NCBI GenBank assembly: GCA_964016885.1
Contig: OZ024742.1
Span: forward strand, 171,058,001 to 171,122,000
Origin: Eledone cirrhosa
Lineage: Eukaryota
Length of the DNA stretch: 64,000 nucleotides
Direction: 5' to 3'
The notes under the pieces are model-generated. The model did not search any database and was not told the origin of the DNA. It was given only the letters and a program-made list of their open reading frames with translations. A program made the position numbers and the translations under genes. The first letter of the stretch is position 1. Every line of letters starts with the position of its first letter. Below, piece after piece: positions 11,319 through 60,228 of this stretch.

Positions 11319-11700
11319 GAATAAGTAAAAGCGAAGTAGTTTCAGATGTTCAAGTCCTTTAATAATAATGCTGTGATATATATTTCAATGACGACACTGG
11401 CCACACAAGGGAACGGATGAAAAACCCAAAGGCACGAACTTCATCCATTCCCATGTCGATTCAATTTGGATTGCCTCGAAAACAACCTTATTATGTAACA
11501 AGCTGTCTGATGATTTCACGACACTCGCACACAGAACAGTGTGGCCAGTGTCGTCATTGAAATATATATCACAGCATTATTATTAAAGGACTTGAACATC
11601 TGAAACTACTTCGCTTTTACTTATTCGATATTTACTCCGTCACTCCTATGGGGAAAAAGTACGTTGAGTGCTTGAATTGAATTGAATCAATATTTACCCT
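11319..11700 (+). mobile_element. Short PLE-terminus hairpin element with hammerhead
   Basis: 11319-11406 is the reverse complement of 11539-11626; hammerhead and bulged stem-loop on +; TA flanks. Confidence 0.8.
11502..11575 (+). ncRNA. Minimal type I hammerhead ribozyme
   Basis: GCTGT-CTGATGA(11507-11513)-stem II (ACGACAC/GTGTCGT)-GAAA(11559-11562)-TATATA-TC-ACAGC; AUC site at 11570. Confidence 0.8.
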
Positions 11701-12271
11701 AATAATATATATATATATATATATATATATATATATATATATATATATATATATATATATATAAATATAAATATATATATATATATAAATATATATATAT
11801 AATATATATATTTATATATATATAAATATATATATATATATATATATATATATATATATATATATATATATAATTATATGTATATACATAGATACATATA
11901 TACATATATTTCTATCTCTTTCAACGTTATATATATATATATATATATATATATATATATATATATATATATATATATATAAATAAATATGTGTGTGTGT
12001 GTTATATGTGAATATATACATATAATATATATATATAGACATTTTTACAATGTATTCTATTCAAAGCAATAAATCTAGTGGTAACAGCTAATTGTATAAA
12101 AATGGTTTTGCTGGTCAACGATATTTGGTGAAGAGGTCAGTCAATAAAAGTCTTCATATCGATTGGAACTGCTAATTACAACCTAATATATATATATATA
12201 TATATATATATATGTATGTATATATATATATATATATGTATGTATGTATATATATATATATATATATATAT

Positions 12272-12655
12272 AAGCAAGAAAGTAAGTGTTGATAAAATCC
12301 AGTACTTCAGTATGCGGATAGGGAGCACTCAACAAAGATATAAGTTCCGGAGTTATAATAGTGACGAAACATAAGTCAATTGCATGAACTTATAATCCTT
12401 TATTTACTGCTATATATATTTCGATGATAGCCATTGAATGGCTATGACCTCATCAGGCAGTTAGTCAGTTCTTAGATATGCCAGCTCTGTGTTTATAGCG
12501 TAGATGGTATCAGAGCCTTGGGACAGAGCTGGCATATCTAAGAACTGACTAACTGCCTGATGAGGTCATAGCCATTCAATGGCTATCATCGAAATATATA
12601 TAGCAGTAAATAAAGGATTATTAGTTCATGCAATTGACTTATGTTTCGTCACTAT
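12272..12655 (-). mobile_element. Short PLE-terminus hairpin element with a hammerhead on each strand
   Basis: Arms 12358-12490 and 12523-12655; unique 3' terminus 12272-12357 on minus; TA flanks. Confidence 0.8.
12552..12607 (+). ncRNA. Minimal type I hammerhead ribozyme (mirror copy at 12406-12461, minus)
   Basis: ACTGC-CTGATGA-G..ATAGCCAT/ATGGCTAT..C-GAAA-TATATA-TA-GCAGT; AUA site. Confidence 0.82.
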
Positions 12656-12856
12656 ATATATATATATATATATATATACGTATCTATATGATATATATAT
12701 ATATATATATATACGTATATATATGATATATATATATATACATATATATACATATAATATACATATATATGCTCTTTTACTCGACCTTATTGTAAACCCC
12801 CACTGTCCCTGTCTTTGTATTGTCGGCCCTTGTGGCTAATAAATGAAATCATTAAT

Positions 12857-12955
12857 ACCAGTAATACACTGGGATAATTGGTGGCCTTGTGCCAAAAGTA
12901 GAAATAATTATAATTATTATTATTATTATTATTATTATTATTATTATTATTATTA
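12857..12955 (+). mobile_element. SINE 3' fragment with long (ATT)n tail
   Basis: TACCAGTAATACACTGGGATAATTG..GCCTTGTGCCAAAAGTAGAAA followed by (ATT)n. Confidence 0.75.
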
Positions 12956-13634
12956 CATGAAAGACTGCATCATCTTGTGAATATAACTTTGCAAAGATGG
13001 AGACAGCATAGAGTAAAATTTACTGTTGAATGTCTGTTTGATTCTTTCAATGACAATTGGTGAGGTGCCATTGAAAGATATTCTTTTTCTCCTACAAAAT
13101 TCTAAACTAGCACTGAATCAACCCTGGCATTAAAAGGAAAGTGGGACTTTTATTTCTTCATATTCTTCTGGCTACTATCTTATGTTGCTGATGTTATTGT
13201 TGTTGCTGTTTTTGCTAATGCTGCTACTTTTGGTTTAATGGTGCCATTAGGGCAGTGGATTGGCAGTATTAGTAGAGTGTCGGACCACATGTTAATTCAT
13301 TACAGGTAGTTAAGAGCTAAATTAAGAAGTGTATTTAAGAAAGTAGGATGCAATTTGAAGATTTGGCTGCTATAATTAGCAGGTGTTGTGACAATGTAGA
13401 GTCTCCCTTATTTGGCTCAAGTATATATTCTTGGAAGTCTGATGGATGAAAGCTTGTCATAGTTCCAAAGTAAATTAGAGGTTTACACAGCAGTTAAGTA
13501 GCATTGGAATTGCCAATTATATAGAGAATTCCTATTGTGTTAACAATGAGAGAACATGTTTCCAGTTGAGCAGTGACATATGTCAACGGATATTGGTATG
13601 CTGGTCAGTTGGCCAGTTGACTATGCACTACTTT

Positions 13635-13960
13635 AACAACAACAGCAACAACAACAACAACAACAGTGACAATGGTGATGATGATGATGTCCACCATAAT
13701 GATGACAACAAGAACAACAACAACATAATTATTACAACAATAAAAACAAAAAAAAAACAAATGATAGCAACAACAAAATCAACAATCATATTGACAAGAA
13801 CAACTAAAATGGTGACAACAATAACAACAACAATGACACTGATGACAATGACAACAACAATAACAGCAATGAAGATGACAACAATTCCAACAACAACAAC
13901 AGCAATGAAGATGACAACAATTCCAACAACAACAATGACACTGATGACAACAACACTGAA
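13635..13960. repeat. (CAA)n/(GAT)n-derived low-complexity repeat with 33-bp units
   Basis: Repeated ACAACAACAGCAATGAAGATGACAACAATTCCA. Confidence 0.75.
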
Positions 13961-14024
13961 CACTATGTAGAGATATGTTCACTGCCAATGAGGAAGCTAC
14001 TATGTAGTTATCAGATAACATTCC

Positions 14025-57878: not shown

Positions 57879-58049
57879 CAGGGTTTCCCAGACTTTTTCA
57901 AACGTGGAACCCCCTTCTTGGTTCAGAAACTTTTGGGGGAACCCCAAAGTCTATTATTGTTATATGGACATAATATAAATATAATCCTCTACCTTTTTTT
58001 TCACGGAACCCTAGACACTCGTTTGTGGAACCCACATTGGGAACCATTG
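57879..58049. mobile_element. hAT/Charlie-like MITE with 8-bp TSD
   Basis: Termini CAGGGTTTCCCA / TGGGAACCATTG; TSD GGCTAACC (57871-57878) / GTCTAACC (58050-58057); inserted in an RTE-tail-type repeat. Confidence 0.65.
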
Positions 58050-59387
58050 GTCTAACCCATGCGAGCACAGTAAACAAAACACACTAATGGTGAATTCTGG
58101 ATCATTTTGCGAGGTACATATTTCAATTCTTCATAGCAGCTACAAACCATATTTTTCTGTTCATAGCATCGGTGTATTTTACATAGTTCTCTAAGCTATT
58201 ATTTATAGCATTTGACTGTGGTTATAATTATTTTCTAAGTTTGAAATTTCTATATTTTCTGAGAACTTTAGTTTACCTTTGGAATGTTATATATGTCCAT
58301 GCACACACACACATTATATATATATATATATATATATATATATATATATATATATATATATATATATATAGATATATATATACATATACACATGCACACA
58401 CACATGTGCATATATGTGTATATATATATATTTGATGATGATGATATAATTGTTTCTACATATATACATATATACATATATACATATATACATATACACA
58501 TGCACACACACACATGTGCATATATGTGTATATATATATATATATATATATTTGATGATGATATAATGATATATATACATATTCATATATTTATTTATAT
58601 ACATGAGAAAACTAAAAGATCACAACATGTCTGAATAAAACCTAATTGATATCAAACTAAACAACAGCAGATACAACAACAACAACAACACCAACTGCAA
58701 TGACAACAACATCAACAACATCAACAACATCAACAGAAACTGCAATGACAACAACAAAAACAAGAACAGCAACAAGAAACACAAATACAAAAATAAATCA
58801 ATTGGGAGACTAGCTGAAGAAATGTCTAAGTAAAAGACTAAATATGTAACAGATGATTGAACTGGTAAGATGGTCGGTCAATATACTAGTATTGTTTTGG
58901 TGTGTTCATTACACTACTATTCAAACTGGTGACATCCTGTGTTAACATCAGATCTTAAAACTTCACTACTGCTGCAATCTCATTGACTCAATCACTTGTG
59001 TGTTTAGTGGAGCAGAATCATGTGTAGTATGTGTGTGCATGTGTGTGTGTTTAAGTAAATATTCATGTGTGTGCATATATATATATATATATATATGTAC
59101 GTGTCTCTCTCTCTCTTTCTCTCTCTCTCTCTCTCTCTCTCTCTCTATATATATATATATATATAGCAGGGACAGCAGATATTAAAACGATGGTGATGAT
59201 ATTTATGTATATGTATGTGTGTATATGTATATATATATATATATATATGTATTTATACATGCATGTATGTTTATATGCATACAGATATGTTTATATGCAT
59301 ACAGATATGTTTGTGAGTATATATATAAATATACACAGATATACACACACACCAATATGTCATCATCATTATTATTATTTGAAGCAA

Positions 59388-59593
59388 GGCAGTGGATTGG
59401 CAGTATCAGTAGAGGGTCTGACGCCATGCTTTGCAGCATGGAGTTATGGCTCAGTACGGTCTGAGTTCAAATCCCACCAAGGTTAACTTTGCCTTTCATC
59501 CTTATGGGGTTGATAAAATAAAGTACCAGTAATGCAGTGGGATAATTGCTGGCCTTGTGCCAAAAAACAGAAACAATTATTATTATTATTATT
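59388..59593 (+). mobile_element. Full-length SINE
   Basis: A box, B box, core, (ATT)n tail. Confidence 0.85.
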
Positions 59594-59694
59594 TAAAGCC
59601 CATTTTTCATTCCATGCTGGATATATATATATATTTTTTTCTTTTCTGGACTTTTCCGATGGAATTATTTCACATATATATATATACATATATA

Positions 59695-59872
59695 GTGTTT
59701 ATCCAGAGTTCCGTGTCTAATACTGGTAGTCTATTATTAGGGTATTTGGAAGGGTAGTCAACAGTTAAAGTTATTCTCTCGTGTATGGAGTTAGCTATCT
59801 GTTGGATGGTCTCCATTGTGCTATTTTCTAATTCATGTTTATTAGAGGGCCCACATTCTCCACTCCCACACA
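59695..59872 (-). pseudogene. PLE RT fragment between TA tracts
   Basis: TMETIQQIANSIHERITLTVDYPSKYPNNRLPVLDTELWI (PLE-type LP.LD motif). Confidence 0.6.
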
Positions 59873-59895
59873 ATATATATATATATATACGATAC

Positions 59896-60228
59896 ATTAA
59901 CAAATGGAAACTATATTTATAAAACCATATTTATTTTATTATACATATTTCAAGGATACCATGTTAAATTATGGTATGCCTTCATCAGACAAAATACAAT
60001 ATATACCAGTTTTATAAAACTGGTATATATTGTATTTTGTTTGATGAAGCCATACCATAATTTAACATGGTATCCTTGAAATATGTATAATAAAATAAAT
60101 ATGGTTTTATAAATATAGTTTCCACTTGTTAATATCATATATTTACTCCAAATACTTGTTGAGTGCTTTATATCAGTTATAAAAATATTTGCTTGTTGTA
60201 TCCCAACAATTTAAATAAAACTTTTGCA
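59896..60228 (+). mobile_element. Loopless palindromic PLE-terminus element with hammerheads
   Basis: Palindrome centred at 60014/60015 with arms ~119 bp; unique 3' end to 60228 contains the bulged stem-loop. Confidence 0.8.
59932..59996 (-). ncRNA. Minimal type I hammerhead (the + copy at 60033-60097 has C3->U)
   Basis: Minus strand TATTTTGT-CTGATGA-AGG.ATACCAT/ATGGTAT.CCTT-GAAA-TATGTA-TA-ATAAAATA. Confidence 0.78.

Follow-up and report, generated by a model that had tools for sequence, protein, structure and literature searches.

Head-to-head Penelope-like insertions in Eledone cirrhosa pair two fixed internal ends, possibly through twin priming on one RNA

How do two copies of one retroelement come to lie head to head at a single target site, and is each of them copied from its own RNA? 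The question is raised by a 64,000-nucleotide stretch of DNA from the animal Eledone cirrhosa (contig OZ024742.1, positions 171,058,001 to 171,122,000, of the 3.0 Gb assembly GCA_964016885.1; hereafter the window), which is rich in (TA)n and carries a series of insertions of Penelope-like elements (PLEs). An earlier note on this DNA had described nine head-to-head inserts flanked by (TA)n, in which one copy ran to the true 3' end of the element and an overlapping, inverted copy stopped just before a stem-loop, and had proposed that the two cut target strands prime on separate RNAs. Self-comparison of the window located all nine, each pairing a tail-less and a tailed arm, together with a tenth at 32023-32485, a solo piece at 4725 and an exceptional insert at 7727-7868 (Table 1). 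Throughout, S1 denotes the end of the tail-less arm and S2 that of the tailed arm. Our preferred answer, to which we give a probability of about 0.55, is that the inserts are made by twin priming on one RNA that carries two hairpins, with two reverse transcriptase (RT) active sites and strand displacement.

Both ends are fixed. When aligned, the tail-less ends in the window lie 5-12 nt before the start of the hairpin motif, and the positions given earlier were right to within 0-7 nt, the gaps stemming from the counting of shared TA letters (the end near 39310 was taken from self-comparison, a deletion having misled the automatic alignment). Genome-wide searches with exact patterns returned 6,210 matches for family B, 3,243 for family C, 1,642 for family A and 26,274 for family D. 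Among 30 consecutive matches per family, S1 accounted for 15 in family A and 14 in family D, with S2 or read-through making up the other 15 and 16; in family C 29 ended at S1, most of them without a partner. In family B, where the patterns were those of one subfamily and of unequal length, 3,223 exact ends lay at S1 and 2,945 matches continued into the tail; 32 ended at an ATA site 10 nt upstream of S1 that offers a better TA match, and seven at TA sites inside the hairpin. At the S1 joint of family A the RNA carries G and the target T, and a terminal TA match is therefore not required at S1. A model of TA microhomology alone was rejected on the end counts in families A, B, C and D. Tallied against the stem-loop, as the earlier note had suggested, the ends in families A, B and D are non-random and fall at two fixed sites; its proposal that a conserved structure, and not TA microhomology, sets the internal start is borne out by these counts and by conservation of the motif. 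The solo piece at 4725 does begin at S1, as described, and its junction has 347 exact matches genome-wide; ten of the 12 fetched were full tail-only inserts.

Raw Illumina reads from three other samples, not necessarily of Eledone cirrhosa, contained both ends as well as opposite-strand joints at 44557-44563, so the palindromes, which the earlier note had wished to see confirmed in raw reads, are not products of assembly. An assembly artefact was rejected on this ground and on the 1-10% divergence between arms and the variety of joints. Amplification of one palindrome as a unit was rejected for family B, in which similarly spaced joints differ in sequence and orientation. The inner ends of family B cluster at 44550-44569 (42 of 49 S1 arms and 38 of 49 S2 arms), where the depth of raw reads also steps; this stretch resembles an initiator (TTAGT) and may be the 5' end of the RNA. 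A minor class of inner ends in this family falls at 44598-44599, the predicted hammerhead cut.

Other ends in these families had features of their own. At the S1 ends of several family A loci (L111, L121, L123, L126, L134, L184 and L208), (TC)n of 3-17 units lies between S1 and (TA)n; this could be RT stutter at initiation or later microsatellite drift, compound microsatellites being common here. At family C loci L081-L110 most inserts consist of one tail-less arm of ~165 nt, which on its 5' side meets the TA repeat at a matching ATAT, and the mix of outcomes in this family differs from that in families A, B and D.

S2 is not the RNA 3' end but a second internal, hairpin-marked start, because copies read through S2 into the open reading frame (ORF). 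With the ORF start as query, read-through past S2 was found at 17 of 25 loci in family B and at 20 of 25 in family E, and it was seen also in family A tandems and at one family D locus; in family D tail and ORF share a reading frame, as they do in the Poseidon PAc. The earlier description of a tailed copy reaching the true 3' end, with one primer at that end of the RNA, therefore had to be given up. The tail is bounded by two internal RT starts, inferred from insertion ends, at the junction of the pseudo-long terminal repeat (pLTR) and the ORF.

A second copy of the hairpin motif that follows S1, RCTC-helix-2-nt bulge-GAGY, begins 5-9 nt after S2 in families A, B and E. Of 70 clusters of inserts, 18 (SINE-like, that is resembling short interspersed elements, zero-tail or artefactual) were removed, leaving 52 with tails of at least 30 nt, 37 long-tail and 15 short-tail. 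The strict motif follows S1 in 17 of the 37 long-tail families, against 0.5 of 37 in shuffles (maximum 3 in 200 shuffles), and its offset from S1 is 5-10 nt in 15 of the 17. The outer pair of its helix is A-T in 11 of these families and G-C in six, and the first inner pair is T-A in nine, C-G in seven and G-T in one, which amounts to compensatory changes at two pairs. Support for the hairpin comes from this covariation, because folding of single sequences does not favour it (no significant hairpin stability in the seven tails folded); the hairpin is presumably stabilised by protein. The same arrangement was found in metagenome contigs with Hydra-type ORFs: among 42 upstream regions of 150-200 nt, de-duplicated in part only, 24 held two motif copies, 13 one and five none, with 55-83 nt between copies, against a two-copy expectation of 0.08 of 42 in shuffles. 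About ten of the 25 metagenome repeat copies listed end 0-8 nt before hairpin 1 or 2, and six of these ten run into TA repeats; the remainder of the 25 stop at contig ends or elsewhere.

In the metagenome loci (L333-L409) the first inner pair of hairpin 2 is C-G in 22 of 24, and that of hairpin 1 is T-A or C-G in 13 and 11, so that the two hairpins may not be equivalent signals. The stem-loop that the earlier note placed at the arm ends is a shared motif in seven of the nine inserts; at the two family D inserts (20692 and 33304) the hairpin is a different one. In that family AATATCG follows both S1 and S2 (20685 and 20745; also L153), each with a possible TATC...GATA stem, which suggests that in a Neptune-like family the duplicated signal is of another kind.

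About nine in ten two-ended inserts join S1 to S2. For family A, 85 of the first 100 matches were fetched, giving 61 regions including the window copy; all 38 resolved pairs were S1+S2, 19 regions were single-armed and four could not be resolved. Among family D pairs, for which the fetch was enriched, 30 of 32 were S1+S2; one S2/S2 pair (L226) and one with an unseen end were excluded from later counts, and one small S1+S2 insert was found besides. In family B the figure was 53 of 58. De novo detection over all loci, in which S1 and S2 were defined from asymmetric pairs and the count is therefore partly circular, gave 133 S1+S2 among 166 pairs, 16 that joined S2 to an end mostly 7-14 nt past S1, six S1/S1, six S2/S2 and five others. 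In 664 kb chosen blind, the same procedure gave 36 S1+S2, six S2 with a near-S1 end, two S1/S1, two S2/S2 and two others. Single-ended segments were more numerous (461), partly since internal TA runs split inserts. The earlier wording that each insertion has two arms was too broad, given the single tail-less arms of family C and the single-armed regions of family A; the insert at 7727-7868, which had been singled out as an exception, is a true S2/S2 insert.

The two arms of an insert share a source. At sites polymorphic among other insertions, concordant and discordant sites between partner arms numbered 1,153:22 in family A, 268:12 in family D and 165:1 in family B, where random partners would be expected to give 442, 108 and 44 discordant sites. 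With age bins set from private differences, true partners differed at 0.2-5% (A) and 2-7% (D) of these sites and swapped partners at 22-29% (A) and 14-32% (D). None of the 53 pairs in family B mixed the two subfamilies. Later conversion or homogenisation was rejected as the main cause of this agreement because private changes lie mostly in one arm (156 in one arm against 27 in both in family A; 42 against 7 in family D) and divergence does not track asymmetry.

The geometry of the arms bears on how they were primed. In 17 of 36 family A pairs and ten of 27 family D pairs the S1 arm extends more than 30 nt further upstream than the S2 arm, and the reverse holds for 14 and ten; since each arm can hold sequence absent from the other, both target strands prime independently, as the earlier note had held. 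It was also right that the long, ORF-bearing arm may be of either type (minus strand at 22926-27999, plus strand at 41611-44695). Its statement that the arms overlap is mostly correct, and fails for tail-only S2 arms (loci L061, L165 and L188), which do not. The inversion joints, by BLAST edges, are a mix of overlaps of 1-10 nt and gaps of 1-50 nt. At their 5' end the inserts hold a 5'-truncated copy in inverted orientation, and just one of their two ends has a tail. What does not follow is that overlap demands two separate RNAs: with partners from the same source and S1+S2 in some nine of ten, one RNA explains the inserts directly, and two RNAs from the same locus are possible.

On the reading that we prefer, two element proteins, predicted to dimerise by analogy with Poseidon PAc, would each bind one hairpin of the same transcript and would nick opposite strands of the (TA)n target. 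Reverse transcription would start just upstream of each hairpin (5-11 nt before it). The S2 enzyme would copy the tail and then trail the S1 enzyme, whose cDNA it would strip from the RNA to give overlapping arms; were it to halt at or before S1, a non-overlapping pair or a solo tail would be left. Joining of the cDNA 3' ends would likely rely on short microhomology or on the addition of a few bases, and would yield a head-to-head repeat with a one-sided tail, and family D would obey the same two-site rule with a different signal. Because one RNA has exactly one S1 and one S2, twin priming on it would yield both the heterotypic pairing and the same-source arms; overlap would mean that the trailing enzyme must displace the leading cDNA. 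The RT of R2 carries out strand displacement. Tail-only arms and the 347 solo tails fit a trailing enzyme stopped at S1, where a TA match could also produce them. A broader proposal, for which we put the odds a little short of even, is that the duplicated, clade-wide RNA signal of Hydra-type PLEs acts as a molecular ruler by which two RT active sites are set on the same transcript, both strands of the cut target being primed at fixed internal sites and one template being copied twice in convoy by strand displacement; with like reserve, this would make target-primed reverse transcription (TPRT) in a programmed two-primer form distinct from those of R2 and L1.

Several observations weigh against twin priming on one RNA. 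Some arms overlap by more than 1 kb (1,155 nt in L178 and 1,083 nt in L216), and such overlaps would demand long displacement by a PLE RT. The lengths of the two arms show no correlation (Spearman 0.19 and 0.06), and an excess of coincident inner ends is confined to family D (7 of 27, p=0.005; family A 4 of 36, p=0.08). Many inserts are single-armed. Among the 166 de novo pairs, 12 are S1/S1 or S2/S2, that at 7727-7868 included, though at least one is mis-assigned; a handful of inserts join arms of different families; and these cases mean that second RNAs or repeated priming do occur. One old family A pair is discordant at 5 of 45 sites. A rare 5-G variant in the tailed arms is missing from the partner in ten of 11 family B pairs selected for the variant, which is neutral if the variant is a copying slip and speaks against one template if it was inherited. 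The strict motif was missed by 20 of 37 long-tail and all 15 short-tail families, and the hairpin is not the minimum-energy fold in five of the six copies folded. Poseidon PAc showed no strand-specific use of its starts in vitro, and the available text on it leaves inverted structures unexplained (PMC11167929). Lastly, sequence does not distinguish one RNA copied twice from two RNAs of one locus.

Two RNAs of one locus are the basis of the strongest rival, in which sister transcripts are held in one asymmetric protein dimer, one primed at hairpin 1 and the other at hairpin 2. It would need no strand displacement, and would fit the long overlaps and uncorrelated arm lengths as well as the same-source concordance, the S1/S1 and S2/S2 minority and the rare mixed-family pairs. 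We nevertheless consider it unlikely: with both sites on each RNA, it needs an extra rule to force S1+S2, and it must pair sister transcripts even for the non-coding family A, captured in trans and with many co-existing sources; swapped same-age partners in that family were within 5% in only 31 of 194 comparisons.

A more doubtful alternative is that a single tandem or circular transcript is primed in two of its repeat units, at S2 of one pLTR and at S1 of another, in which case the arms would share sequence without overlapping on the molecule. In its favour, PLE loci form partial tandems, family A has a tandem unit of 1,317 nt, and read-through copies exist in families B, D and E; twin priming on one RNA is itself established for L1 (PMC2912911). 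Such priming does not of itself forbid S1/S1 or S2/S2 pairs, and the arms of family B mostly stop at 44550-44569, as if at one end of one unit. The register of tandem units was informative at one of 13 loci, L178, where the two outer units are closer to each other (2.1%) than to the inner one (3.2-3.9%); this single case favours the same unit.

The proposal of two independent RNAs from the family pool, one primed at its 3' end and the other internally, is very improbable and largely refuted by read-through and partner concordance: S2 is no RNA end, family B shows no mixing of subfamilies, and discordance between partners amounts to a small part of what copies of the same age show. A search for mixed-family head-to-head inserts gave 13 candidates, mostly related families, repeats or adjacent inserts, and a few of these (L194, L203, L205 and the C15 block) would suit independent RNAs. 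Head-to-head joints between different families with no TA run between the arms lie in L194, L203, L205, L132, the C15 block (26145-26372) and the window at 39786-40309, and are possible two-RNA events. Self-priming or fold-back of one cDNA or antisense template, as proposed in PMC3846280, would give same-source arms, the excess of coincident inner ends in family D and the clustering of family B joints in a hairpin loop, and may hold for a subset of near-perfect palindromes, but as a general route it is refuted, since it needs the copied arm to lie inside the first and the tail-less arm is often the longer (the counts given above), some pairs have no overlap, and it gives no reason to stop at S1.

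The elements, mostly of Hydra type, fall into lettered families (Table 1). Families B and E are assigned to the Hydra-clade PLEs by their motifs: although broken, their ORFs keep the order RT then C-terminal GIY-YIG endonuclease (EN) in a short element, with RWR (not RWK), DKT in place of DKG, a CxCx5C linker, CxxC and CxH near the end of the EN and no CCHH, and they are inserted in (TA)n. Relatives are ~700 aa long and 37-42% identical. These features correspond to the diagnostics given for Hydra PLEs in the available text of PMC8557442 (RT then GIY-YIG, RW[KR], DKT, CxCx5C, CxxC/CxH, (TA)n targets and hammerheads). A Pfam scan of four PLE ORF fragments matched no family. The translation of family D has a Neptune-like linker (CX2-5CxxC) and C/C/H/H residues, and the family is called Neptune-like on these motifs. 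Family A is non-coding and is likely moved by PLE proteins; its 1,317-nt unit repeats in tandem and has a hammerhead core. The hammerhead core of family E is canonical and that of family B, read by eye, is a variant; an Rfam scan gave no hammerhead, and only microsatellite-driven miRNA matches, among the matches listed (150 of 233). From its UUGACAA core we infer that the family B fold is of a U3:A8 type. Hammerhead-like folds with the same core lie also at 28721-28754 and 29005-29038, and in folds of this kind U3:A8 may be a natural substitute for the conserved C3:G8 pair.

Table 1. Inserts and associated features in the window, with aligned S1 positions and hairpin-motif starts
Feature	Position	Strand	S1 / motif start	Remarks
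Family B solo tail (S1 to S2) lacking a partner arm	4725..4804	+		junction matched genome-wide
Family B insert, both arms ending at S2 (minor class)	7727..7868			from alignment
Family A two-armed insert (non-coding 1,317-nt tandem family)	11319..11704		11626/11634	tail-less arm -, tailed arm +
Putative hammerhead core, family A (CUGAUGA ... GAAA), upstream of S1	11507..11562	+		by core motif
Hairpin 1, family A (ACTC-helix-TT-GAGT)	11634..11669	+		by motif; not minimum-energy fold
Family C two-armed insert	12273..12652		12361/12353 (-)	tailed arm -; both arms with hammerhead cores
Family D (Neptune-like endonuclease) two-armed insert	20271..20745		20685/20692	tail within ORF start; different hairpin
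Family E Hydra-type element	22926..27999	-	27901/27912	long ORF-bearing tail-less arm -; short tailed arm 27675-27999 +
Family E hairpin 1	27912-27937			within 22926..27999 element
Family E hammerhead cores	27800-27842; 23027-22985	+; -		
Broken RT + C-terminal GIY-YIG ORF	25365..27683	-		RWR, DKT, CxCx5C, CxxC; compared with available text of PMC8557442
Family F two-armed insert	28509..29068		28691/28681 (-)	tailed arm -; tail ~180 nt
Two-armed insert absent from earlier list	32023..32485		32061/	38-nt tail on -; without RCTC...GAGY motif
Family D two-armed insert	33143..33355		33298/33304	
Family B second-subfamily two-armed insert	39207..39390		~39310/39319	same subfamily letters in both arms
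Family B Hydra-type element	41611..44695	+	44615 or 44616/44624	S2 = 44695; S1 aligned at 44616; tail-less arm 41611-41768 -; long ORF-bearing tailed arm +
Family B hairpin 1	44624-44647			within 41611..44695 element
Broken RT + C-terminal GIY-YIG ORF	41766..43823	+		RWR, DKS (DKT in other copies), CxCx5C, CxxC, CxH
Putative family B hammerhead, UUGACAA core	44509..44602	+		by eye; predicted cut near 44597/44598; minimum-energy fold differs
Family G two-armed insert	59882..60227		60133-60140/60145	hammerhead cores in both arms

Other repeats accompany these inserts. A non-LTR element at 8127-11297 (+) has a near-intact ORF of 1,056 aa for an AP-endonuclease and RT, and its 3' end abuts the family A insert. 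A SINE-like repeat of ~190 nt recurs at 3083-3280, 24131-24331, 36842-37408, 56450-56650, 59387-59593 and 60793-60982; it occurs also in tandem and often interrupts family A at one TTATTA site. Further PLE-derived pieces lie at 37958-38899 and 63336-63746, namely a fragment of a Hydra-type EN that has one tail-less end, and an insert interrupted by a two-ended piece nested within it. At L038-L039 (G000:C3, ~171.20 Mb) a perfect 310-nt tandem repeat, its first unit inverted, lies in TA and is retrozyme-like.

The overall architecture of PLE inserts is already known, which limits the surprise, and publications on PLEs already cover the inverted copy, the tail on one side, two internal starts, priming on both strands and a predicted dimer. 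The origin of the inverted pLTRs and one-sided tails is posed as an open question in the available text of PMC8557442 and left open in that of PMC11167929. A duplicated hairpin, S1+S2 pairing and partner concordance in PLEs were not found in the literature searched, whose coverage stopped short of subscription journals, Fig. S2C of PMC11167929 and the HHR file of PMC8557442. A defined cis-signal of two short bulged hairpins, exact start offsets and a pairing rule make the mechanism testable. If true, it would be a TPRT variant with two programmed internal starts, would indicate which non-coding repeats Hydra proteins can move, and would correct the habit of naming the tailed end the element's 3' end; a molecular ruler would, if real, explain why the pLTR is inverted, why the tail is on one side and why solo tails exist, as well as the trans-mobilisation of non-coding repeats that bear the hairpins.

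The closest relatives are the Hydra-clade PLEs with a C-terminal EN (Craig et al. 2021, PMC8557442), which families B and E resemble in RT and EN order, motifs, (TA)n targets and hammerheads; the inverted 5'-truncated copy with a tail at one end only is described there for PLEs generally. Their tails are 30-40 nt, against 60-200 nt in the motif-bearing families here, and the tail is ascribed to endonuclease-mediated resolution, the main text as available containing neither the term 'stem-loop' nor pairing statistics. Family A is, like the animal non-LTR retrozymes (bioRxiv 10.64898/2026.07.22.740005; PMC7229834), non-coding, hammerhead-bearing and tandem; its 1,317-nt unit, Hydra twin hairpin and two-armed footprint are not discussed in the available text of those sources. 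The PLEs of Adineta vaga (Arkhipova et al. 2013, PMC3846280) share the head-to-head arrangement, the tail on one inverted pLTR and palindromic joints, but the self-priming on an antisense template proposed for them is excluded for most inserts here by the geometry of the arms. Poseidon PAc (Frangieh et al. 2024, PMC11167929) offers biochemical precedent for priming on two strands and at two internal starts, and for a dimer, which is predicted. In vitro it cuts and extends both strands, starting at two internal sites on either side of the tail, and it requires RNA 3' of the start; its starts lie in one AC-rich stem-loop, and the available text names no duplicated signal. In L1 twin priming (PMC2912911), as proposed here, both strands prime on one RNA and the cDNAs join by microhomology. 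L1 starts at its poly(A) 3' end and at a variable internal site chosen by base pairing, and the inserts described here depart from that rule of one primer at the RNA 3' end and non-overlapping arms: both of their starts are fixed and internal, and their arms usually overlap.

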